Source of the DNA: Tricharina praecox
Taxonomy: Eukaryota
Length of the DNA stretch: 64,000 bases
Assembly (NCBI RefSeq): GCF_024521635.1
Contig: NW_026250409.1
Span: forward strand, 1-64,000
Direction: 5' to 3'
The notes under the pieces are model-generated. The model had not been told where the DNA came from, did no database searches, and saw only the letters and a list, made by a program, of their open reading frames with translations. This document shows positions 1-29,231 of this stretch, in pieces (the stretch's first letter is position 1; every line of letters begins with the position of its first letter). The position numbers and the translations under genes were made by a program.

Positions 1-177
1 CACCAAGGAGGAACAACAAGCCCAGAGTGCAGCTGAACGGTTGCACCAAATAGACGGTGTTGCCCGCAATCTAATGGAGTATGTCCAGGTACGGCAACAA
101 GAGGACTCCCACCGGTCCTGAACCCCCGCGTCAGCCTTTCAATCAGGCAACATGTTATGGGTTACTGGTAGGGACTG

Positions 178-867
178 TGTGACACCCCGATAGGTGTCGG
201 AGGTCACGACGGTCGCAAGAGATGTGATTACATAGTTCGGGTGATTGGAATAGAGTTGCGAGCCGAAGGGATAGTTAGAAGCGATCGAGGACAAGATAGG
301 AAGGAGAAAGCAAACGGATTCCAGAGTCTAGACAGTGATAGGAGATGCAGGAGAACGGGATAACAGTCCAGAGGACTTTGAGATCTCCGTTCATAGGGCC
401 CCGCAGTAGGAACTCCGATCCAGGGAAAAACTGTTATGACGAGAGAATCGAACATCAACCGATGGGGGCAGATAACTTCGAGCGAAGAACTCTGCCGGCG
501 CATGAGGGAGATAATTGCTTGGAAACTCCAATCTATCTTGGGCGCGTGGTGCTTACCACCTGCCTAGTCGAGAAGACTATCCGAAGAGAGCTGACGACGA
601 GTCGAGGCTAGGCCGCGGAACTCCGATGCAAAGGAAGCAACGGAGCTACTTCAGGCCGCACTCTAGAAGAAGCACGTGCTCAAGATCAGAACGGCTATAA
701 GTCGAATCGAGCGGGCAACCGAACCAAACTACAATCATCGCACCGAAAAAACCATCAAAGAAACACCCTTAAGATTATTCCGTTGTGAATTATCGAAATC
801 CCTGACTTTTATTCTACACTCGATATTACCATAGACTCTGACGACGCAAACTCGTTCCAGTCTCACA
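178..867 (+). mobile_element. Solo LTR, family B (690 bp)
   Basis: TGTGACACC...AGTCTCACA termini with a perfect 5-bp TSD GACTG (173-177 and 868-872). Related copies occur elsewhere in the window. Strand is relative to the other copies. Confidence 0.9.
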
Positions 868-874
868 GACTGGC

Positions 875-985
875 TGTCACAGTTCCGAAATCCTTGCCTT
901 AAGTAGCTACTTGGATGATGGCCTTCAGCCATCAAAATATTTTTTAATCGAGTGGTATAGTACTTACCCAGTGTACTTGATTACA
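875..985 (+). mobile_element. Solo 111-bp LTR of the TRIM family
   Basis: TGTCACAG...ATTACA with a near-perfect TSD CTGGC/CCGGC; matches the copies at 22945, 23243, 23457 and 29121. Confidence 0.88.
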
Positions 986-1418
986 CCGGCGCACCGAGAG
1001 ACCCAGTCGCAAGCTGGAGAACAAACACCATGGTCCCTATTGCGTGATTCGGACCATCAAAAGCCATGCCTACAAATGGGATATTCCAGACTCTGCTCAG
1101 AGGCACCGAACTTTTTCCGGTATCCCTCCTTCCCGCCTCCGCCCACTATCCTTTCCTGGGACTGATTCCACCGCCATTAATTCCGTTAATTGCGGACGAC
1201 CAAGAAGAATGGGACGTTGAAGAGATTCTTGACAGCCGGAACCTCCGGGGCAAACTCCAGTACATGGTAAAATGGAGGGGCTACGCGGCATCAACGTGGG
1301 AACCAGAGGAGAACTTTACCGAGGTACAAGCTGTGAACGGCTTCCATGGACTATACCCCATGCAGCCTGGACCAGTCAGACTTGCTCTCATGGGAACTCG
1401 AGCCTTAGGAAGGACTAC

Positions 1419-1931
1419 TGTCACGGCTCGCAACGGAATGACAAAGAAAGGGTCAGCGTAAGGATTAGCAGAGTTGGCACGCAGTGCACAGGTAGTGCAC
1501 CAGCTGTGCAAGGATACGTCGAAGAGGATTGGGTGTTTGTGCAGGAAGCAGGGGTAGTGCGGCTGCGCAGGGTATGAGTCACAGAAGCGGGGGTACTGGT
1601 AAGGTGGATTTCTCAGGGTCAAATACATGCCCACCGTCATTGTCGGGTTGCGGAAAGTAGAGGAGGATTTCAAATATAAATAGACTGTTGCCCCACTTTA
1701 CTTAGTTGTCCACGCAACAACTTATTAATTCAACAACAGTTACCTCTGTTCTCGTCTCGGCTGCCGTCTGCACTGTAGTTCCTGTCTCCACCCTTGTTTC
1801 TCAGTTGCCGTCTGCATTGAGTCCTTTCTTGTCTCGTCTCCCAGTCCCGCCTCGCCCTTGCTCAGCCCAGCTCCTGTCTATCTGTCCATCTGTCTTCGCT
1901 ACCTGGAGCCCAGCCAGACCGTGCCGTTACA
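1419..1931 (+). mobile_element. 3' LTR (family A, 513 bp) of the chromovirus remnant
   Basis: TGTCACGGCTCG...CCGTTACA directly after the PPT; TATA-like ATATAAATA at about 1674; many related copies in the window. Confidence 0.9.
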
Positions 1932-2229
1932 AAAAACCAGACTGAGAACGTAAACCTTTCTGAACGCTTACGCCAAAGCATGACTCAAAGGGCGTTCACA
2001 ATGGAGTTCCCCACGACAGAGTTGTCCGACCAGGTGCTTGGTGTATGGGTAGACTATATAGTCACTCGGCTATTGTAGCGGAAATCCCAACACCAGCACA
2101 CCAGAACAACCAAAACTACCCGCAATACCCCACTAAAATTTCTGGCTGTGAATTATGGAAATCCCTGACTTTTATTCTACACCCAATATCCATCAACACT
2201 CCAGTGTCCCAAAGCGTTCCAGTTCTACA
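1932..2229 (+). mobile_element. Partial LTR, family B variant (3' portion)
   Basis: Ends GTTCCAGTTCTACA and shares AAATCCCTGACTTTTATTCTACAC with 178-867; near-identical to the reverse complement of 23689-23955 and to 28782-28959. Confidence 0.75.
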
Positions 2230-2562
2230 GCGGCAGGCAACAGCGGAGCATCGGGTGAACTCCTGGGCAACAGCTTAGATGATTGGCCAGGACCACGGCA
2301 ATTCCAAACGGTCAAAGAACAACAACGCTGACAATCCGGAAGGGTTCTTCCTTGTCACACAAATTTATTTCCTCAACTTACCAAACAGATGCAGATGGAG
2401 GGCGGCACACGGCCGTGCAAAAGATTTGGATTGCCTGGTTTTTGTTTTCTGCTTTCCATACTTGTTTCTGTTTTACATCTGGTTGTTGTATTTTCTTGCG
2501 TCATAGGGTATAGCCCTAGGGCTCCAAACTATATGAATAATAAATAAATAGATAAATAAATA
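2230..2562 (+). mobile_element. Probable LINE 3' end with (TAAA)n tail
   Basis: T-rich 3'-UTR-like stretch followed by AATAATAAATAAATAGATAAATAAATAA, the type of tail seen on fungal Tad1-clade LINEs. No RT motif is visible. Confidence 0.45.
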
Positions 2563-2828
2563 AGTGGAGGGTTGAGGGTTGTGGCCTTAGCCCAATGTTG
2601 GCCCCAAGCAGTAGAGGCTTGGCATTGGGAGGTAGAGGGCTTGTATTGTGGCGTGGAGGGTTTGTGCTTAGTAGCTAGTCATCCGAGGGTGTGCCCTGTA
2701 CATTCAACCCTAAGTTGTGTGCCCTACCTTTCCATCCCCTTATCTGCCCAAAAATTTGAATTCCTTGAACTTTCCTACAAACCTCCACAACTCAACAACC
2801 CTCAGAGCCCCAAAACTCTCACAGCCGC

Positions 2829-3305
2829 ATGTGGCAACAAAACCACATACCAAGAGCCATCAAACCGATGTCTGATGATCTCAGCACAACTGCTGAGTTT
2901 ATATGTAAGAATTTTCCAAATCTTACATCAATCCCAAATTCATTGTTGTATGCAAAGCGGTTGACCAATGAAGACTCCACCAATGATGCTTTCTTGGGCA
3001 ATTCGAGACAGCCAGCCGTTGGTGATCACGTGAAGCTGATAGCGGTGTGGATGACTATTCCCGGCTCCGGCCGTGTTCAGAGCATCAAGTTGACCTCTTT
3101 CTCCGGCAACGATATTGGCTGGATCTGGAATGATCAGAAAGATGATATTCTTTCATTGATTGATACTGGAAGTGATGTCTTTGGCGTTGTCATCCGGAGC
3201 ATCCCATTCCGCTGGGATGGTTTAACCTCTTATAACGGACTTGTGAGATACTTTAGCGTACAGGTTGGTACCTGTTCTGATTTCCATAATCTCACTGACA
3301 CTTAG
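2829..3305 (+). CDS. Hypothetical 158-aa protein, possibly HIRAN-like
   Basis: Intact ATG-to-stop ORF. The pattern VGDHVKL...SIKLTSFSGNDIGWI....DILSLIDTG..VFGVV resembles the HIRAN layout by eye only. Confidence 0.35.
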   Translation: MWQQNHIPRAIKPMSDDLSTTAEFICKNFPNLTSIPNSLLYAKRLTNEDSTNDAFLGNSRQPAVGDHVKLIAVWMTIPGSGRVQSIKLTSFSGNDIGWIWNDQKDDILSLIDTGSDVFGVVIRSIPFRWDGLTSYNGLVRYFSVQVGTCSDFHNLTDT

Positions 3306-4305
3306 TAGCAGCCCAAGACGACCGGTACACACAAGCAGCTTGAACATGTATGTGTCTGCTTAACATATAATAGTTCAATTCACTGCTAATAGAGCTACAT
3401 CTAGTCCAGTCACAACGGTCATGTGTCTGAGCGTGAGATGAGCAGTGCTGCCCCTGCCGGTCAGTCTGATTGCACATAATAGCTGGTACACCCGCTCCTT
3501 GTAATGCTAAGATCTTGGATGCACTTTCAAAGGCTAACACTAGTGATGCTTATCGCAGCGCAGCCAATGTGAAGTGCACCTCAAGGCATCTACTCTTCGA
3601 TTCAAAGGTAATCATTGCAATCGCTGAATCAAATCTGACCAGTGTTCAATGATGGCTACCTCGCAAAAATTTCAGTAGAGTTTTCAGGCAATGCAACAGT
3701 CTCTGAGTCATACCTGTTTCCGGAAAATAAATGTGTTTCTCTTGATAGAGTGGGTAACACCAAGATGCGATGATAAACTCCGATGTTCATGCTCTCATAG
3801 TGCTTAGTACAACGGTGTATAACAGCTTTGACGCGCATGTTGAAGCTGTGATTGGCCAATATTGAGCAATAGACAGCACTGCTATCAATGTCCAGTCTTA
3901 TTAAAAACCTTCACTCACAGTTAAAGCCTATCAATGCCTAGATATTGCAGGGGATTGTTCTAACTGGAGAACTGGGTGTTGCAAAGCAGTACAAACGGGT
4001 CAGAAACTGTATCCCAGATAAATCCTGCGCACCAGGGGGACAGATGCAGCTTGCCAGTTCTCTTCCTGCAATGCAGTAATAGCAATGGCACCGAGTGCTG
4101 ACAATTAGTGACGGTTGTGGAACTATACCATCACCATCTTGCTATCTACTACGGCCACACGCGATAAGTGATGGTACTTCTTCCGGCGATGGAGTGATAT
4201 CAGTGCCAACCGTTGCTGAACTATACCACCAGCAGCTTCATACTTACCATAGCCACATGCAATACTTATTGGTACTTTTCCATGCGATGATGCAAAAGTG
4301 GTAAT

Positions 4306-4858
4306 AGTCATGGCTCACGACGGAATGACAAAGGAAGGGCCGGTCCGAGGATATGAAGAGTTGGGAGGCAGTGCACCGGCAGTGCAAGGATGATTTGCAG
4401 AGGATTAGGCATGTGTGCAGGGAGCAGGGATAGCGCAGGAATAACTTGCAGAGGATTGGGGCTGTGTGCAGGAAGCACGGATAGCACGGATACGCAGGGT
4501 ATGAGTCACGGATGCGGGGGTACTGGCAAGGTGAATTTCTCAGGGTCTGGCACACGCCCACGGTCATTGTCAGGTTGTGGGAATAAGTGGATAATTTCTT
4601 ATATAAAGGGGCCGATGCCCCTCTGAACTTAGTTCTTCACGCAACAACTTGTTAATTCAACAACTGTTACCTCAATCCTTGCCTTGGCTGCCGTCTGCGC
4701 CGTAGTTCCTGTTCCCGCCCTTATTCCTCAGCTACCGTCTGCACTGAGTTCTGTCTTGCCTCGTCTTCGCGTCTCGTCTCCCCCTTGCCCAGGCCCGTTG
4801 CTGTTCATCTGTCCACAGGTCTTCGCTACCTGGAGCCCAGCCCGACCGTGCCGTTACA
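4306..4858 (+). mobile_element. Solo LTR, family A
   Basis: (A)GTCATGGCTCACG...CCGTTACA with a perfect TSD GTAAT (4301-4305 and 4859-4863). Confidence 0.92.
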
Positions 4859-5160
4859 GTAATTGTTAGCACTGAGGTATACAGAAGGTTCCCAGCCTAC
4901 ACCTGATCAGCTTCCAGCGTGCAAAAGCCTCATGCATTATTTGCTGGTCATTACCTGCTGGTACTCCTGCCCACTACACCGCAAAAGTGGTACAAATAAT
5001 ACTGAACTGGTAGTAACGATTCTGAACTTGTATTACTTCCAGTAGTGTGCCGAACATGGCAGTGGGGAAAATAAAAGGTAAGTAGTAAATGTTAGTACTG
5101 CTTCTAGCAAGGCAGCGATAACAGTGGCCTTCGGTACGTAGCATGACTGATGACTGTGGA

Positions 5161-5221
5161 TGAAATCAAGTATACTGGGAAACAACTATACCACTCGGCC
5201 AAAAAGTATTTTGTTAGCTAA
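5161..5221 (-). mobile_element. Partial TRIM LTR, cut by an LTR-A insertion
   Basis: TGAAATCAAGTATACTGGGAAACAACTATACCACTCGGCCAAAAAGTATTTTG aligns with the minus copy at 29121-29180. Confidence 0.75.
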
Positions 5222-5710
5222 TGTCACGGCTGGTGGCGGAATGGCGAACGGTGGGCTGACACAATGATTGGAAATATTGTGAGGCAGTGCACTGGCAGTG
5301 CAGGGATGAGCCGCAGAGGATTAGGGCTGTGTTCAGCGAGCAGAGATAGCGCAGGAATGAGTTGCAGAGGATTGGGGCTGTGTGCAGGACGCAGGGGTAG
5401 CGCGGATGCGCAGAGTATGAGTCACAGAAGCAGGGTACTGGTAAGGTGGATTTCTCAGGGTCTAGCACACACCCACGGTCATTTTCAGGTTGAGGGAAGA
5501 AGTGGATAATTTCCTATGTAAACAGGTCGTTGCCACTCTGTACTTAGGTCTTCACACAACAACTTGTTAATTCAACAACTGTTACCTCTGTCCTTGCCTC
5601 GGCTGCCATCTGGGCCGTAGTTCCTGTCTCCGCCATTGTTTCTCAGTTACCATCTGCACTGGGTCCCGCCTTTCCTCGTCTTCGCGACTCGTCTTGCCCT
5701 TGCCCGCCCG
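5222..5710 (+). mobile_element. 3'-truncated LTR, family A
   Basis: Starts TGTCACGGCTGG and is colinear with 4306-4858, but lacks the CCGTTACA end. Confidence 0.85.
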
Positions 5711-5749
5711 GGTTTCTGTCCACCGCTCCACCCTGCCCACCCTGCCCAT

Positions 5750-10390: not shown

Positions 10391-12374
10391 CTATTTGGTA
10401 TCAAAGTACTCCTCACACCTCTCCAGCAAATCCGCTTTCTTCCCCTTCGTGTCCAATCCAACTCCCTGCAAAAACTCCCTCAGCTGGACGACGGTGCATT
10501 TTACAAGCTGCCCCTTATCGTACATCGCTCTCAGATCCGTACCGGATTCTGCCTTTACCCTCTTCGGCTTCGGAGGTGCTGCCTCTCCAGCCTCCTCTTT
10601 GACCCTCTTCGTCCCCTTCTTCTCGGCCATCGGCGGCGGCAATCCACCAGCGGAATTCATCAACTCCTGTCTCCACTCCAGAACCAAATTTCCAACATGC
10701 CTATCGATAGCCTTATACTTCGGCACCGTCCTGTCGAGCAGATGCTCTGGCATATCCTCCTCCAGCGCGATGGCCTGTAGGATACGGTAGTGCCATTGCA
10801 GACTTGGGTTTTCGTATTTCTCTGGCTCGTATCCCTTTGGCATGTGCAGCTGCTTAACGATGGCGCGCATGCGGTCGATCAGTGCGGCGGAGGCTCTGTT
10901 GGAGGGAATTTCGGGGTTCGCACGGATATCGTCTGCGAAAGGGAGATGGACCATGTGGAAGCCTGGTGGCTGCAGTTGGCGCTCACTTACGGGGTCGATT
11001 TTTTCCAGCGAGGGGATGAGACAGCAGAGGCTTGGTGGGGAGTTGCGGCGGGTGATGGCCCACACCAGCGCTACTTTGTCAGACGCGGCAAGCTTGTTCA
11101 GGAGAGCGGTGAAGGTGCGGGTCGAGCCGACGTAGTCCTTTTCGTCCGGGTAGACGAATTGTGCGGGCTTTACGTTATAGTGGAATTTCAGCGCGGCGGA
11201 TGATTTGAAGCCGATTATGCGGATCCCCGGGGTGCCGAAGTTGCGCATCGCCTTCATTTCTTCCTCCAAGAAGACGATCTGCTCGCCGCCGAATTTGTAT
11301 GCCTTCTGGATTTCGGTCTTGACGAGAAGCTGGGCGGTGAATTCGGCGTGGAAAGTAGTGGTGCCTTTCACGATCTGGGCTTGCTCGCCGCCTGTGTAGA
11401 TGTAATGCGATCGCCCCTTTTCTTGTTTCTTGTAAAGGATGTACCCCTTGACGCCGATGCTGAGTCCCGGGCCGATCTCGAGCGTGGTGGAAAACTGTGA
11501 TCGCTTTGCTGTGGCTTTGGAGCGGATGGTGCTGATCATCTCCTTCAGCCTCGTCGTACCGCTGGCGGTAACAGGCAGCACCCTATCCTCCTCTTCATCG
11601 GAATACGCAGGGCGGTAGATGATATCGTCGTAGAATTTCCCGGGATCGAACGCCGACTTGCGGCCGGGATTGGAGATGTAGAACGGGTCAATCTGTACAC
11701 CGAGGTCGTACAGATCCCTAGCGCGGGTGATGGCGCTGTTCTTCAGCGCCTTGTCATTTGCGTGGGGATCGTCATCGTCAGTGATCAAGAACAGCTTCCG
11801 GCTCTGGAAGTTGGCAGCTTTGGTCGTGAACGTCTGGTTTGCACCGAAGAGGACGTTCGCCATCGACACTGTCTCTCCGCAAGGAACAAGAAGTTCATCG
11901 AACGCGTCGTCGTCCTCAAGCAACGTCTTCAGCCGTTTGATACTCGCCACATCTGGAACGTCGAGATCCATCAGAAGGTACATATGTTCGAACCCTGCGC
12001 CGCCGCCTGTGAAGCTTGTTTCTTTTGTCCCGAAAAGCAAGATCCCCATCATGTCGTTTGGATTCGAGATGATCCGCGATTGCAGGATGGAGTAGGCGCA
12101 TTCCAACGCGGTGCGTACGGCGGAGGTGCGGGGCGGCGTCGCTTTTTGGGGGTTGTCATCAGGAGATGGGGTGTGCTCTGCTAGCATGCTTGGGGAGACG
12201 TGGATCGCGAAGAGAATGGCATCTTTTTGGTCTTTGTAACGCTGCGATGAGCCGTTGAATTAGCTAGAGTTCTGACGGGGAGAAACAGTGGCAGTTGCAT
12301 ACCGAGACGTCCTCCTCCTCTTCTTCCTCATCAACCTCGTCGTCTTTGGGGGACCATTTTGTAGAGCCAGACAT
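10391..12374 (-). CDS. KU70: Ku70 NHEJ DNA end-binding subunit, about 640 aa; intron 12242-12302
   Basis: Acidic exon 1, then KDAILFAIHVSPSML (vWA), RKLFLITDDDDPH, FVYPDE..YVGSTRTF, HLPFADDIR, YENPSLQWHYRILQAIAL and a C-terminal SAP domain (TVVQLREFL...GKKADLLER). Confidence 0.97.
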
Positions 12375-16718: not shown

Positions 16719-16817
16719 TCCTCCGTGGCGCAATTGGCTAGCGCGTTCGACTGTTAACCCTGCAACCCGCGGAGTTCGGCGATCGAGAGGTTGGTGGTTC
16801 AAGCCCACCCGGAGGAG
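16719..16817 (+). tRNA. tRNA-Asn (GTT) with a 25-nt intron (16757-16781)
   Basis: Acceptor stem TCCTCCG/CGGAGGA+G, D-arm TGGCGCAATTGGCTAGCGCG, anticodon arm TTCGA-CTGTTA^A-TCGAG, T-arm GGTGGTTCAAGCCCACC, downstream TTTTT terminator. Confidence 0.95.
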
Positions 16818-22578: not shown

Positions 22579-22830
22579 TGTGACACCCCGATAAACTCTC
22601 GGGTGGTCACAGCAAGAGCGGTTCGTTTGGAAGCGATCCCAACACAGGAATCTATAGTCGTACCATAGAGACGAGTTAGGCAGGAATGGGCAAAACTCGA
22701 TCCTGAGTTTAGACAGCAGTTAGCGATACGGGCAATGCAGGGTGAAGTTCGATACGGCCAATACGGCCTGAGGCAGTGCATCATGGAACCCCGTGGAAAG
22801 ACACGCCGATCATGTAACCTGTTATGACGC
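22579..22830 (+). mobile_element. 5' fragment of a family-B-related LTR
   Basis: Starts TGTGACACCCCGATA, identical to the start of 178-867; the right boundary is uncertain. Confidence 0.5.
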
Positions 22831-22944
22831 GCGGTTACCAATGCATCGACAAATGGAAGCCTGTAAAACTGGGCCTGTTCTCAGTGCTGACATGAAAATA
22901 TGTACTGCTTGATCTGAGCTACGCCCGGGTAGGAAGTGGTAATT

Positions 22945-23353
22945 TGTCACAGTTCAGAAATCCTGGCCTTGAGTGGGTACTGGGATGATGGCCTTCAGCC
23001 ATCAAAATACCTTTTGGTCGAGTGGTATAGTACTTTCCCAGTGTACTTTATTACAGTTTGATGGCTGCCAAGGTCATGAGTTCAATTGCAACTGCGAGCA
23101 GTTACATTTCTCTGCTGCAGCGTTGTTCAGGAATTGCATGGCTTACAGTGAGTGACGGTTCATGATTCTTATCATGAATTATCACTCATTGGGGTTAACT
23201 ACTTGAAGGCTTCCTGGAGTAAGGGCCTAAAAGAGGGGATACTGTCACAGTTCAAAAATCCTGGCCTTAAGTAGCTACTGGGATGATGGCCTTCAGCCAT
23301 CAAAATACCTTTTGGCCGAGTGGTATAGTACTTTCCCAGTGTACTTTATTACA
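22945..23353 (+). mobile_element. Complete non-autonomous mini LTR element (TRIM): LTR 22945-23055, 187-bp internal region, PPT, LTR 23243-23353
   Basis: Two 111-bp TG...CA direct repeats. PPT AAGGGCCTAAAAGAGGGGATAC lies just before the 3' LTR, and TTTGATGGCTG occupies the PBS position. No clean TSD (TAATT vs ATCTG). Confidence 0.85.
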
Positions 23354-23456
23354 ATCTGGCGGTGGTTACCCTGAGCAAGGTGATATTGTTGCTGTAGCAT
23401 TCTCAATCAGGCAGAGGAGTTTGCGATCTCGATCGCCGCGCCGGCTGTGTGTGTGG

Positions 23457-23567
23457 TGTCACAGGTCAGAAATCCTGGCCTTAAATAGCTGCTGGGATGA
23501 TGGCCTTCAGCCATCAAAATATCTTTTGGCCGGGTGGTATAGTACTTTCCCAGTGTACTTTATTACA
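23457..23567 (+). mobile_element. Solo 111-bp TRIM LTR
   Basis: Perfect TSD TGTGG on both sides. Confidence 0.92.
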
Positions 23568-23688
23568 TGTGGCTGTGAGCGCAGCGTCCAGCGTCTGTGG
23601 GTATTCGAGACGGAGCATGTCGACGTTGGAGGATGACATAGCGGTTCTTGGTTGTGAGAACGGTGACTTATAACTCTTAAGATAACAG

Positions 23689-24040
23689 TGTGAAACTGGA
23701 ACCGTGTCGTGACGTCAGAGTGTTGATAGATATCAAGTTTAGAATCAAAATCAAAGATTTTGATAATTCACAGCAGAATAATCTTAACCGGTATTGCCGG
23801 TAGTGTTCGTTGTTCCAGTGTGCTGGTATTGGGATTTCCGTCACGATAGTTGAGTGACTGTATAGTCTACCCATACACCAGGCACGTGATCGGAAAACTC
23901 TGTCGTGGGGAACTCCCTTGCAAACGCCCTTTGAATCATGTTCCGGCGTAAACGCTACGGATAGTCACTCACTGAGTCTAGGCCAGAGTGTCGCTGTAAG
24001 ATGACATATGGATAGCAGTTCCGAGTAGGCAAGAAGTGCT
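23689..24040 (-). mobile_element. Partial LTR, family B variant
   Basis: TGTGAAACTGGAACC terminus; the reverse complement aligns with 1960-2229. The right boundary is approximate. Confidence 0.75.
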
Positions 24041-24043
24041 TAC

Positions 24044-24401
24044 TGTAAAGGCACGGTCGGGCAAGGCTGCAGGTAGCAAAGTCGGGCGGGTGATCGGGTA
24101 CTGGGTACAGCAAAGGCAAGACAGGTTCAGAGGACAAGGCAAGGCAGGGCTCAGTACAGATAGCAACTGAGAATAGAGGCAGGGACAAGGACTACGGTGC
24201 AGATGGCAGCCGAGACGAGGACAGAGATAACAGTGATTGAATTAACAAGTTGTTGCGTGAAGAACTAAATACAGAGGGGCAACGGCCTGTTCATATAGAA
24301 ATTCCTCCACTTCTCCCTGCAACCTGACAATGACCGTGGGTGTGTGCCAGACCCTGAGAAATTCACCTTGCCAGTACCCTGCTTCCGTGACTCATACCCT
24401 G
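24044..24401 (-). mobile_element. LTR family A, interrupted at 24401 by another LTR-A
   Basis: TGTAAAGGCACGG terminus, colinear with the reverse complement of LTR-A. Confidence 0.85.
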
Positions 24402-25623
24402 TGTAACGGCACGGTTGGGCAAGGCTCCAGGTAGCGAAGCCGGGCTGGGGATCGGGTTCTGGGTTTGGCAGAGGCAAGACGGGTTCAGGGGCCAAGGTGA
24501 GGCAGGGCTCAGAGCAGACGGCAACTGTGAGACTGGAACGATTTCGGTCATCGGAGTCGATTGATAGAATGGGGTTTAGAATGAAAATAGATAGTATTCT
24601 TTTCACAAGTGGAATAATCTTAAGGGGTAGTGTCGATGATTTTCTGGTTGCTGATTCTGATGATGAATCTTTCGCCGTGTCGTTGGAAGTCTATATAGTT
24701 GGGTGATTTGGTCGGGTCACGTGCCAGCCGTTGCCGTAGCTTGTTGCCGGATGGAACCCTGGCGTGAAATCTCTGCACCTGGTGCGGAGACTTTCTCCGC
24801 CATGTCATCAGAGTCGTCGTAAGCCTTCAGGATAGTTTATACAAACTAGGCAGGTATGGCGCACCAATCCTTACCCGAGCATAGTCCGGTTTCAGCTATC
24901 TTTTCGCTGGGCAACGGCTGCGCCTTTCGGCACGGCTCTTATTTGCTTAAGACGCCAGAAGAGGGGCAACACTCGTCATAGTGGTTTTTCTCCGATCAGA
25001 GTTTTCTCTGCGCTTGTTCGCGATTCGCCTGCCTCAAGTCGAGCATGACTGTATCGGACTTTTCGTGCGTATCGCTGCGCCTCTGATCCCACCTAGACTC
25101 TAGTTCCGTTTGCTTCCTTCCTTCCTATCTCGTCTCCGACTAGCTACGACTAATCTAAAGGTGTTTCCTCCTGCTCCCCGATCTATCTAACTATTTTTCC
25201 CGAACTTCCGTTGGTAAGAAGCCGAACCCTGAAGTTGGGCCGACTGCGACCAGGGTGTCACAGCAACTGAGAACAGAGGCAGGGACAAGGACTACGGCGC
25301 AGACGGCAGCCGAGGCAAGGACAGAGGTAACAGAGGTTGAATTAACAAGTTGTTGCGTGAAGAACTAAATACAGAGGGGCAACGGCCCGTTTATATAGGA
25401 AATCCTCCACTTCTTCCCGCAACCTGACAATGACCGTGGGCGTCGTGTGCCAGACCCTGAGAATCCACCTTGCCAGTACCCCACTTCCGTGGCTCATACC
25501 CTACGCAGCCGCACTACCCCTGCTTCCTGCACACAGCCCCAATCTCCTGCGACTCATTACTGCGCTATCCCTGCTCCCTGCACACAGCTCCCAATCCTCT
25601 GTGACTCATCCTTGCACTGCCGG
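24402..25623 (-). mobile_element. LTR family A split by a nested solo LTR-B and cut again at 25623
   Basis: TGTAACGGCACGG at 24402; LTR-A sequence resumes at 25263 after a duplicated GCAAC. Confidence 0.85.
24526..25262 (-). mobile_element. Solo LTR, family B (737 bp), nested in LTR-A
   Basis: TGTGAGACTGGAAC...GGTGTCACA with a perfect TSD GCAAC (24521-24525 and 25263-25267). Confidence 0.92.
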
Positions 25624-26134
25624 TGTAACAGCACGGTCGGGCAAGGCTCCAGATAGCGAAGTCGGGCGGGTGACCGGGGACTAGGCGGGGCTGAGACGAG
25701 GCGGGCTCAGAGGACGAGGCAGGGTAGGGCTCAGTGCAGACGGCAACTGAGAAACAAGGACAGAGACAAGGACTACGGCGCAGACAGCAGCCAAGGCAAG
25801 GACAGAGGTAACAGTTGTTGTATTAACAAGTTGTTGCGTGAAGAACTAATTACAGAGGGGCGTCGGCCCGTTTATATAGGAAATCCTCCACTTCTTCCCG
25901 CAACCTGACAATGACCGTGGGCGTGTGCCAGACCCTGAGAAATCCTCCTCGCCGATACCCCGCTCCAGTGACTCACAGCCTGCGCTGCCGCGCTACCCCT
26001 GTCTCCAACACACAGCCCCAATTCCTCTCACTCATTCCTGCATTGCCGCCTGCGCAGCCCCCTGCGCAGCCCCTGCGCTGCCTTCCGACCCCTATTCCGA
26101 CTCTTCCTCAAACGTTCCAATGTGAGCCGTGACA
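25624..26134 (-). mobile_element. Full-length LTR family A with non-matching flanks
   Basis: TGTAACAGCACGG...GAGCCGTGACA; flanks are GCCGG and TGGGG. Confidence 0.9.
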
Positions 26135-28341
26135 TGGGGGAAGTGGCCACAGGGCCAGGCATTGCCCCAACAAGAAGCGAAATCCGTTCCGAGCAGCCGT
26201 TGCCCGGCTGGAGTCAGCCCAGCCCACCAACACCACCCCAGCTCACATCTATCACAACTGCGACCGGGATTGCAGCGAGACCTCCCAGCAGTCGGGAAAA
26301 GCCTAGACCAACAACCGCTTGATGGCCGGTTGTTGGTCGTATCCAGGATAAGTCTTTGTCTCCTATGTCCCCCCATTATTCGTTTGTCTAGTCTCTCATT
26401 GTCAGGAATGGTTGTGGAGAAATCATCGATTGAAGGCAAACTTCTTGTTGTATTGTGAAACCTTTCGTTTGGTGACAAAACCATTGCCACGCATGCGCTG
26501 ATCGACTGTGGGGCAACCGGAATTGCATTTGTAGACAAAGACTTCCCCTGCCATCACCACCTACCCCTCGTACCCCTGAAATTCCCGCGCACCCTCGAAG
26601 TCATCGATGGCCGTCCCATCGAGTCAGGCGACATCACACATGTTGCCACCACCACCCTGTCCATACAGGAGCACCACGGAGAAATCCCTACGTTTGTCAC
26701 CTAACTAGGCCACTACCCCGTTGTACTCGGAATCCCCTGGATGGACCTCCACGGTGTGGCCATCCGGTTCAGCTCCCGGACCCCCATCTTCGGCTCCCAA
26801 TACTGTACAGCTTACTGCAATGCAGTGCCCACAGTTGCACATGGAGTCACGATCGGCCCACCTGACATATCCACCTATGCTCTCGCGTCAAAAGCAGCTC
26901 AGGAAGAGCCAGCGGTAAGCGCGGCGGCCGGCGACATCGTGGCCCGCTGCATTACGTCTCCCTCAAGAATCAATAACCAAGAATACACTAACCTTTCAAG
27001 GGTAACCACAGTCAGAATCTCTGCTTTACAGATGGAGTCATTCCAAGAACTGGTCAGCAGGAAAAGTCTGACGATTTTCAACACCACGCTTGCTGAGGTC
27101 AACGGCGCACTGAAAGGAAACAAGGACCCTACGGCACATATCCCTCACAGATACCACGAGTTCCTACCGCTGTTCTCCGAAGCCCTTGCCCAGAACCTGC
27201 CCCCGTACCGACACTACGGTCATAAGATTCCACTCAAGGAGGGATTTACGCCCCATACGGACCACTGTATTCACTCTCCAAAACGGAGCTCATCGCACTG
27301 AAGGAATGGCTTGACGACAACTTCAGCAAAGGTTTTATCCGTGCTTCTTCCTCTCCAGCAGCATCGCCAATCCTGTTTGTCAAGAAACCGGACGGCTGCC
27401 TACGCCTGTGTGTGGATACAGGGGACTGAACGAAGGAACAATCAAGAACAGGTACCCACTCCAACTCCTCCAAGAAACTCTGATGCGGTTCTCCGGGGCG
27501 AAATACTTTACCACCCTGGATATCTGCGGTGCTTACAACCTTGTACGGATGGGGGAAAGAGAAGAGTGGAAAACTGTCTTCCGGACACGCTATGGGCTCT
27601 TTGAATCCCTCGTGATGCCCTTCGGCCTCACCAACGCCCCTGCCAACTTCTAAGCTCCGATCAACGATGTGCTACGCCCTTTCCTTGTCGGCTTCTGTAT
27701 CGCATTCATCGATGACGTCTTCATTCACAGCGTATCCTTAGATGAACACCGGAAACACTTCAGGAAAGTACTGCAGGCCTTATCGGCAGCCGGCCTACAT
27801 CTCAAACCTGAAAAATGTCATTTCCACCAGGCCGAAGTCAAGTATTTGGGACAGATCATTACAACAAACGGAATCAAGATGGACCCAGCGAAAGTCTCCT
27901 GCATACTGGAATGGGAGGAGCCGAATACCGTCACCGATGTGCAATACTTTCTGGGATTTGCGAACTTCTACCGGTGATTCATCCAAGACTATTCCAAGGT
28001 GATATCCCCATTGACAGAATTGACCAAGAAGGAGAACGGAAAGTATGTTCCCTTCGTGTGGGGACCGGAACAGCAGAAAGCGTTCAACGAACTGAAAACA
28101 GCATTCACCTTGGCCCCGATCCTCTGGCACTTCGACTACGACCGGGAGATGGTAGTTGAAACTGACGCCTCCGACTACGTCTCCGCCGGAGTCCTATTCC
28201 AGTACGACGATGAGGGAATCCCGCACCTGGTGGCGTTTTATTCCAAGAAACACTCCCCGGCAGAATGCAACTACGAGATCTATGACAAAGAACTCCTTGC
28301 AATCATCCTCGCCTTTGAGGAGTTGAGACCACATCTGGTGG
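26135..28341 (+). mobile_element. Degenerate Ty3/Gypsy gag end, protease, RT and RNase H (truncated at both ends)
   Basis: GGSGHRARHCP (zinc-knuckle half) and SGKA* gag end; ALIDCGATG protease; [64 protein letters not shown]. Many stops and frameshifts. Confidence 0.95.
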
Positions 28342-28781
28342 GCAACTGAGAACAGAGGCAGGGACAAGGACTACGGCGCAGACGGCAGCCGAGGCAAGGA
28401 CAGAGGTAACAGTGGTTGAATTAACAAGTTGTTGCGTGAAGAACTAAATACAGAGGGGCAACGGCCCGTTTATATAGGAAATCCTCCACTTCTTCCCGCA
28501 ACCTGACAATGACCGTGGGCATGTGCCAGACCCTGAGAAATCCACCTTGCCAGTACCCCGCTTCCGTGACTCATACCCTGCGCAGCCGCACCACCCCTGC
28601 TTCCTGCACACAGCCCCAATCCCCTGCGGCTCATTACTGCGCTATCCCTGCTCCCTGCACACAGCCCCCAATCCTCTGCGACTCATCCTTGCACTGCCGG
28701 TGCACTGCCTGTGCACTGCCTCCCAACTCTCCCGATCCTTGCGCCGACCCTCCCTTCATCATTCCGTCGCGAGCCGTGACA
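28342..28781 (-). mobile_element. Truncated LTR family A
   Basis: Near-identical to 25263-25623 and continues to the GAGCCGTGACA terminus. Confidence 0.9.
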
Positions 28782-28959
28782 ACTATATAGTCACTTGACT
28801 GTTGTCCCGGAAATCCCAACACCAGCACACCAGAACAACCAACACTACCGGCGATACCCCTTAAGGTTATTCCGCTGTGAATCCTCAAAATCCCTGACTT
28901 TTATTCTATACTCGATATCTATCAAGACCCCGACGTCCTGAAACCGTTCCAGTCTCACA
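28782..28959 (+). mobile_element. 3' part of a family B LTR
   Basis: Ends GTTCCAGTCTCACA; aligns with 2053-2229. Confidence 0.8.
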
Positions 28960-29120
28960 TACAGTCAGTGAAGAATGCAATTAGTGGGCTGTAGAAACGT
29001 GGAAGTGCATCATCCAGTTGTGAATATTGTATGTTGATGCTGGTAGACAAATTGTGAACGAAGAGGGGTGAGAATAACTTACAAAGTTGAAGATGGAAAG
29101 CTTTGATTGTAGATGCTTGG

Positions 29121-29231
29121 TGTAATAAAGTACACTGGGAAAGTACTATACCACTCGGCCAAAAGGTATTTTGATGGCTGAAGACCATCATTCCAGTAGC
29201 TACTTAAGGCAAGGATTTCTGAACCGTGACA
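29121..29231 (-). mobile_element. Solo 111-bp TRIM LTR
   Basis: Perfect TSD CTTGG on both sides. Confidence 0.92.

Follow-up and report, generated by a model that had tools for sequence, protein, structure and literature searches.

A 409-bp non-coding LTR element from a fungal genome with an LTR complement placed for possible self-priming

Introduction

Can an LTR element of 409 bp that encodes nothing prime its own reverse transcription? The question is raised by a unit at positions 22945-23353 of the window, by which we mean the whole 64,000-nucleotide stretch of Tricharina praecox DNA analysed here: just past its 5' LTR, where a primer site would be expected, the unit carries a sequence complementary to the LTR itself. 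TRIMs, or terminal-repeat retrotransposons in miniature, were first described in plants and later in animals and fungi, and TRIMs, fungal TRIMs and self-priming are each well known already. How an element of this kind is primed matters, as primer choice tells which helper a non-autonomous element depends on. According to the accessible parts of the sources, Tf1, Tf2 and the Tf1/sushi chromoviruses, among them the fungal elements Maggy, Skippy, Cft-1, Boty, Grasshopper and Afut1, have no tRNA primer site and are primed by the first bases of their own mRNA (PMC6934838, PMC6317226, PMC4600332, PMC5341516, bioRxiv 10.1101/2022.12.06.519325). The self-priming RNA is described in the accessible text of the last of these as a 'pretzel' of three duplexes, with the duplex of primer and primer site at its centre (bioRxiv 10.1101/2022.12.06.519325).

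Results

Anatomy of the 409-bp unit

The unit had been described in an earlier note as two 111-bp TG...CA LTRs around a 187-bp non-coding core that ends in a polypurine tract, and repeat search and a six-frame check of open reading frames confirm this description. The 5' LTR (22945-23055, plus strand, as are all parts of the unit given below; TGTCAC...TTACA) and the 3' LTR (23243-23353) are both 111 bp long and, by repeat search and alignment, identical at 106 of 111 positions, with TG and CA ends. Measured against the majority of the five full LTR copies in the window, the 5' LTR has four private differences and the 3' LTR has one. The core between them (23056-23242, 187 bp) is non-coding, its longest open frame in any of the six frames being 35 codons. 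It ends in the polypurine tract AAAAGAGGGGA (23229-23239), which consists of 11 purines and is separated from the 3' LTR by the three nucleotides TAC.

The stretch from 23068 to 23228 is a structured non-coding region with two long hairpins (23071-23144 and 23146-23191). When 23068-23242 was folded, the predicted free energy was -66.6 kcal/mol (z = -6.33), and none of 200 shuffled sequences was equally stable; a structure of this predicted strength would fit a possible role in packaging or dimerisation. The second hairpin, 46 nt long and near-perfect, shows a sub-threshold likeness to microRNA-precursor models (E 2.5-3.4).

Beyond the unit, the window holds three more full copies of the LTR and one partial copy. 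The solo LTR at 23457-23567 (plus strand), 103 bp downstream of the two-LTR unit, is flanked by the target duplication TGTGG/TGTGG, and that at 29121-29231 (minus strand) by CCAAG/CCAAG. A third solo LTR (875-985, plus strand) lies inside a chromovirus integrase gene, with flanks CTGGC/CCGGC that agree at four of five positions; once this LTR and one flank copy are removed, the reading D-W-R-T-E-R-P-S is restored, the 1232-residue polyprotein P0004 having N-W-R-T-A-R-P-S. The partial copy (5161-5219, minus strand) is older and covers LTR positions 53-111 at about 85% identity. Since the solo copies show 5-bp target duplications, the 111-bp repeat is a true LTR with the boundaries given above.

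Two-LTR copies with 5-bp target duplications had been proposed as a check on the element, and the outcome is mixed: such duplications are found at the solo LTRs, two of them perfect and one matching at four of five positions, but not at the two-LTR unit, where the flanks are TAATT and ATCTG. Because it lacks a target duplication and 5 of the 111 positions differ between its LTRs, this copy of the element is old and probably recombinant; most simply, two neighbouring insertions would have recombined to produce it. As a component of the host genome, the element is unremarkable. All LTR copies in the window fall within two nests of broken transposons, at about 1-5730 and 22945-29230, none of them in or beside ordinary genes. 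The genes of the window include Ku70, cytochrome c heme lyase, mevalonate-diphosphate decarboxylase, a P450 and similar. Ku70 (10394-12259, minus strand) is a single open frame, with metagenomic relatives at 86-88% identity and Wilcoxina mikolae (73%) as the closest named organism, followed by other Pezizales, which puts the host in this order.

An 11-nt LTR complement one base past the 5' LTR

A single base, G 23056, separates the 5' LTR from the putative primer-binding site TTTGATGGCTG (23057-23067). This is the exact reverse complement, with 11 of 11 pairs, of the putative self-primer CAGCCATCAAA (22996-23006, LTR positions 52-62), which is unchanged in all five full LTR copies. That such a complement exists one base past the LTR was the central observation of the earlier note, and it holds: only 26 of 200,000 shuffles of the core yielded a complement of at least 11 nt that starts within 5 nt of where the LTR ends. 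The 11-nt match is genuine and not random, and its position is the right one for self-priming of the Tf1 type.

The duplex of primer and primer site has a predicted free energy of -15.9 kcal/mol. In the predicted fold of 22996-23080 it encloses a U5 stem-loop (23022-23054), which ends 2 nt before the primer site and is worth -9.9 kcal/mol alone; the whole fold reaches -26.4 kcal/mol (z = -3.6), and 1 of 200 shuffles was equally stable. A counterpart of the third duplex of the 'pretzel', 23009-23017 with 23068-23073, is predicted to be weak (-5.7 kcal/mol). Within the LTR, the right arm of a hairpin (TGATGGC-cttca-GCCATCA, 22985-23005; duplex -10.8 kcal/mol) overlaps the putative primer.

Past a 2-nt bulge the complement resumes with eight more pairs (22988-22995 with 23070-23077, -9.9 kcal/mol), which brings the total pairing between LTR and core to as much as 19 bp, interrupted by the bulge. 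The complement thus reaches 22988, and a transcript start as far up as this position would therefore also fit. Three readings of the extended helix offer themselves: the start may lie nearer 22988, the helix may have some other use, or it may derive from an inverted piece of LTR. There is no clear TATA box: the LTR copies read TTAAGTAG or TTAAATAG about 21-28 nt upstream, and the letters of this region in the copy of the 409-bp unit are TTGAGTGG.

What else might the pairing be? One answer is that the element is a TRIM in which pairing between LTR and core acts as a structural signal, for packaging, dimerisation or RNA stability, and that a host RNA, either a tRNA fragment or a small RNA, is the primer. 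The length of the helix, which at 19 bp with a bulge exceeds the 11 bp of Tf1, speaks for this, as does the strong structure of the rest of the core (z = -6.33). We nevertheless consider it unlikely. The duplex ends exactly one base from the LTR, which is where the 3' end of a primer must sit, and chromoviruses of the self-priming group are present in the window. Furthermore, the primer site contains no recognisable complement of a canonical tRNA 3' end or of an anticodon loop, nor does it share a complement of 6 nt or more with the window's single tRNA gene. The first TGG past the 5' LTR occurs at +7, and the tRNA 3' end that it would imply has an A where the nearly invariant C61 of tRNAs is expected. 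The tRNA gene of the window (16719-16817, plus strand) contains an intron; it is recognised by Rfam (51 bits, E 5.5e-08) and was missed by ARAGORN with bacterial settings. A precedent for priming by a host RNA comes from the fungal TRIMs of the Helenus group, which the accessible part of the source describes as primed by internal tRNA fragments (PMC10886601).

Sequence variation bears on a second alternative. Of the 111 LTR positions, 21 vary among the five full copies, and they are unevenly spread: the block that contains the primer and the hairpin (LTR positions 41-62) varies at 1 of 22 positions and the block of the U5 stem-loop (78-110) at 2 of 33, together 3 of 55 as compared to 18 of 56 elsewhere (Fisher p = 0.0005). 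No covariation between primer and site was seen, the window offering a single primer site for the comparison. Among the differences listed for four public runs (see below), none falls inside either 11-mer, and a frequent one, 23069 C>A, falls in the predicted bulge. Were the complement functionless, the first ~21 nt of the core would be what remains of a partial LTR fragment taken up in inverted orientation at the element's origin, and the sequence has the look of it, in that the reverse complement of 23057-23077 equals LTR 22988-23006 bar a 2-nt insertion and one transition, just as an inverted duplication would leave. However, the 11-mer is perfect where the remainder has decayed, it is unchanged in the listed run differences where neighbouring positions vary, and conservation within the LTR is concentrated in the primer and U5 regions. 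In the Tf1 model, moreover, each cycle copies the primer site anew from the primer, and the resemblance between primer and site is equally explained by such re-copying. We judge a functionless relic to be improbable.

A third possibility is that polymerase III transcribes the element from a tRNA-derived promoter in its LTR, which would make it a TRIM of the Helenus/Cassandra type (TRIMp3). The LTR does contain a sequence, TGGCCGAGTGG, that fits the box A consensus, and a run of four T residues lies at 23012-23015. Three of the five LTR copies read TGGCCGAGTGG at positions 69-79, which also fits the pattern 'TRGCY ... YGG' in the accessible text on these elements (PMC10886601). Against this, a permissive Rfam scan of 22900-23600 (E up to 10) returned no tRNA or 5S match and ARAGORN none, no box B follows box A inside the LTR, and the T run would halt polymerase III 17 nt past the proposed start. 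Helenus also lacks, as far as the accessible part of its description goes, complementarity between the tRNA-like part and the primer site, unlike the 409-bp element (PMC10886601). A TRIMp3 identity is therefore very improbable in our estimation. Tf1/sushi-type self-priming is the best reading of the sequence of the 409-bp element, and we favour it with moderate confidence.

Evidence for a propagating TRIM family

Within the window the core (23056-23242) occurs once, with no second copy. To look beyond it, we used four public runs of the 19 that match: X1, a soil metagenome (192 records); X2, a very small run (151); and X5 (14) and X14 (11), which are runs of two related organisms. All four are contigs, which cannot show RNA ends. 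The core and both of its LTR junctions are covered by contigs in each of the four. In X5 a single 327-nt contig spans 23020-23346 with 10 other letters and 2 gaps, in X2 a 60-nt contig spans 23005-23064 with 1 other letter, and in X14 a 155-nt contig spans 23096-23250. The contigs disagree with one another at single positions; position 23095, for example, is T in two X2 contigs and C in the rest. Since several contigs carry different letters at the same place, more than one copy of the element exists per sample. Summed over contigs, the depth of the core exceeds that of the flank 22600-22930 many times over, a ratio that is not a copy number. One deletion variant, seen in one contig each of X1 and X5, joins 23062 to 23157 and would retain 10 of the 11 pairs.

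The flank itself (22724-22923) can be followed in X5 and X14 at about 89% identity up to a point where unlike sequence takes over, and the element is therefore absent from this locus in both organisms. The loose end of the X14 contig at 22923 resembles a ~270-bp TATATAG repeat described below. No contig of the runs examined covers 23377-23524. One X14 contig joins a sequencing adapter to 23022. In X2, one contig runs from the LTR end plus G straight into TAC plus the LTR start, at a depth of 7 and with 28 nt on its shorter side; it looks like a two-LTR junction formed from unprocessed cDNA ends, or a genomic LTR-LTR tandem, and its support is thin. The gap in cover, the adapter join, this junction and the deletion variant were given no weight in the argument.

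Pattern searches were also made in assembled contigs. A 23-nt LTR pattern had no match in metagenome contigs; a 21-nt pattern had two, which were bare 21-mers without further likeness and were put down to chance. The one match in prokaryote genome contigs, a 28/30-nt hairpin in a bacterial MAG, was likewise taken as chance.

Taken from sequence, then, the 409-bp unit very probably belongs to a solid TRIM family. The earlier proposal of a TRIM is thereby strengthened to one of a propagating non-autonomous family, on the grounds of the target duplications at the solo LTRs and of the contigs from other organisms that cover core and junctions; the alternative it had named, a one-off deletion derivative whose core occurs nowhere else, is contradicted by the presence of the core in contigs of relatives. 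That the unit was never mobile as such, being two independent solo LTRs with 187 bp between them or what a single internal deletion left of a large element, might be argued from the lack of a target duplication around it, the single core in the window and the third solo LTR 103 bp away, which shows that LTRs cluster here, but is barely credible given that contigs of other organisms and of the soil metagenome join the core to the LTR on both sides in several variants, that summed contig depths of the core are well above those of the flanks, and that the core starts with a sequence like a primer site and ends with a purine tract.

Chromovirus remains and a candidate helper

Having no genes, the TRIM family depends for its copying on the proteins of an autonomous LTR element, a Tf1/sushi-type chromovirus being the likeliest. 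Remains of such chromoviruses occur in the window, all of their pol pieces broken. A pol C-terminus at 981-1405 (plus strand) contains an SH3_Tf2-1 domain (E 3.6e-08) and a Chromo domain (E 4.7e-10), and its product is 60-76% identical to the last 138 residues of P0004, up to the end of that polyprotein. Fourteen bases past it starts an LTR of a ~510-bp family (1419-1931). The two together (981-1931, plus strand) represent the candidate helper family: a pol C-terminus with a Tf2-type SH3 and a chromodomain, to about 1405, and then an LTR of the form TGTCACGG...GTTACA.

The ~510-bp LTR family, which has internal tandem repeats, accounts for eight copies or pieces in the window, some in head-to-tail partial arrays (1419-1931, 4306-4858, 5220-5731 and, on the minus strand, 24044-24533, 25260-26134 and 28341-28781). 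The copy at 4306-4858 is a solo LTR with the target duplication GTAAT/GTAAT. A degenerate chromovirus fragment at 26135-28346 (plus strand) comprises the second half of the gag zinc knuckle (GGSGHRARHCP), protease, reverse transcriptase (with the FIDD motif) and RNase H, and its frame is interrupted by two stops. Both of its ends are truncated and adjoin ~510-bp LTR copies of opposite orientation (25624-26134 and 28341-28781). Its RVT_1 and RT_RNaseH domains lie at 27315-28346, and metagenomic polyproteins 75-77% identical to this part carry a Tf2-type SH3, an integrase and a chromodomain.

At the chromovirus junction, GCCTTAGGAAGGACTAC is followed by TGTCACGG and the LTR ends in GTTACA; at the TRIM junction, GCCTAAAAGAGGGGATAC is followed by TGTCACAG and the LTR ends in ATTACA. 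Common to the two are TAC directly before an LTR start TGTCAC, and the LTR end TTACA. Because these shared letters sit exactly where RNase H and integrase act, the ~510-bp LTR family is a reasonable candidate helper, and we treat it as a lead suggested by sequence. The check proposed earlier, a search for an autonomous Gypsy element with the same termini, primer site and purine tract, is thus answered in part: the ~510-bp LTR family shares the TAC-TGTCAC junction and the TTACA end, but a generic alignment of the polypurine-tract junctions of TRIM and chromovirus scores 22, no better than background windows (22-24). The candidate helper's own primer site does not lie within the window.

A ~270-bp repeat with a TATATAG motif and the common end ...GTTCCAGTCTCACA is found at 766-870, 1965-2235, 23689-23954 (minus strand), 24525-24626 (minus strand) and 28782-28962. 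It ends in CACA and twice trails the ~510-bp LTR, at 32 and 90 nt; it may be the LTR of a third family, or a 5' leader.

A second candidate for a self-priming pair was tried and rejected. It joins 26136-26146 to 25888-25898 by 9 Watson-Crick and 2 G-U pairs, one base past an LTR, and 29 of 3000 shuffles were as good. The pair was rejected because its supposed primer site is the coding sequence of the gag zinc knuckle (GGSGHRARHCP) and the LTR is inverted relative to pol, its orientation being judged from the junction of pol C-terminus and LTR at 1405-1419.

Discussion

A proposed route for self-priming by the 409-bp element

If the element primes itself as Tf1 does, its replication might proceed as follows. 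RNA polymerase II would start in the 5' LTR at about 22988-22996, and the 5' end of the RNA would fold back, so that CAGCCAUCAAA pairs with UUUGAUGGCUG one base past the LTR and the U5 stem-loop is packed against the primer duplex. The RNase H of the helper would then cut after the duplex, and the freed 3' OH (A 23006) would prime minus-strand DNA from G 23056. Once the strand has been transferred to the 3' LTR, synthesis of the plus strand would be primed by the purine tract at 23229-23239, and integrase would insert the new copy, duplicating 5 bp of the target. In this mechanism we infer the start site and the cleavage as well as the polymerase and the helper element.

The LTR-internal hairpin may find a place in the same scheme. 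An RNA that starts at 22996 would lack the left arm of TGATGGC/GCCATCA and would carry it in its 3' LTR copy, and the hairpin could thus keep the 3' copy of the primer from mispriming. A hairpin-masked primer would be a feature not described for Tf1. In its fullest form, the proposal is of a complete minimal self-priming element: 409 nt with a promoter, an 11-nt self-primer, a U5 stem-loop, a primer site, packaging hairpins, a purine tract and integrase ends, whose LTR hairpin hides the 3' primer copy and leaves the 5' copy free. Such an element would live as a parasite of fungal chromoviruses and would be the first TRIM on record to do without a tRNA. We advance this larger claim tentatively, giving it slightly less than even weight.

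Were it true, a parasite would keep self-priming with just 409 nt of RNA signals, and a self-priming TRIM would link its family to the Tf1/sushi chromoviruses even though no coding sequence is common to the two. The element would also offer a very small natural substrate for dissecting the self-priming structure and the RNase H cut. Annotation pipelines for transposable elements that are keyed to tRNA primer sites would miss such elements in fungal genomes.

The earlier note was aware of no self-priming TRIM this small. As regards self-priming this stands, in that we found no description of a self-priming TRIM in the full-text literature, a scope that most subscription journals fall outside. 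As regards size it does not: 409 bp is no record, because an LTR element of 292 bp is reported in the accessible part of a published account (PMC3281118).

Comparison with known systems

The 292-bp element is SMART, an LTR retrotransposon of grasses, which according to the same accessible text resembles the 409-bp element in being extremely small and non-coding, and differs from it in being a plant element and smaller than 409 bp (PMC3281118).

With TRIMs in general, the element shares short direct TG..CA LTRs around a short non-coding interior, which a primer site and a purine tract delimit; its family also has solo LTRs and 5-bp target duplications, as TRIMs do, and like them it needs a helper. 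The primer site sets it apart: in described TRIMs it complements a tRNA 3' end or, in the fungal Helenus as the accessible part of the source has it, a fragment of a tRNA anticodon loop (PMC10886601), whereas in the 409-bp element it complements the element's own LTR. Helenus, Cassandra and Ajax (TRIMp3; Kojima 2024, PMC10886601) come close in other respects, being, from what the accessible text states, small fungal TRIMs with 5-bp target duplications, non-canonical primer sites and a box A-like motif in the LTR. Helenus differs in that the same text gives no complementarity between LTR and primer site for it and places it in Basidiomycota rather than Pezizales (PMC10886601); the LTR of the 409-bp element, for its part, has no tRNA- or 5S-like match.

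The Tf1/sushi elements differ in scale and in what has been mapped: they are autonomous elements of 5-6 kb whose LTRs measure several hundred bp and whose mRNA start is mapped at the primer, whereas the 409-bp element encodes nothing, has a 111-bp LTR and a putative start, extends its complement to 19 bp and has a weak third 'pretzel' duplex. Like the 409-bp element, they live in fungal hosts. They have no tRNA primer site, and none is apparent in the 409-bp element; they carry a U5 stem-loop beside the site, as is predicted for the 409-bp element, and in Tf1 and Tf2 of Schizosaccharomyces pombe and the Tf1/sushi chromoviruses, Tj1 and Tosmo among them, an 11-nt LTR sequence is complementary to a site just past the 5' LTR.
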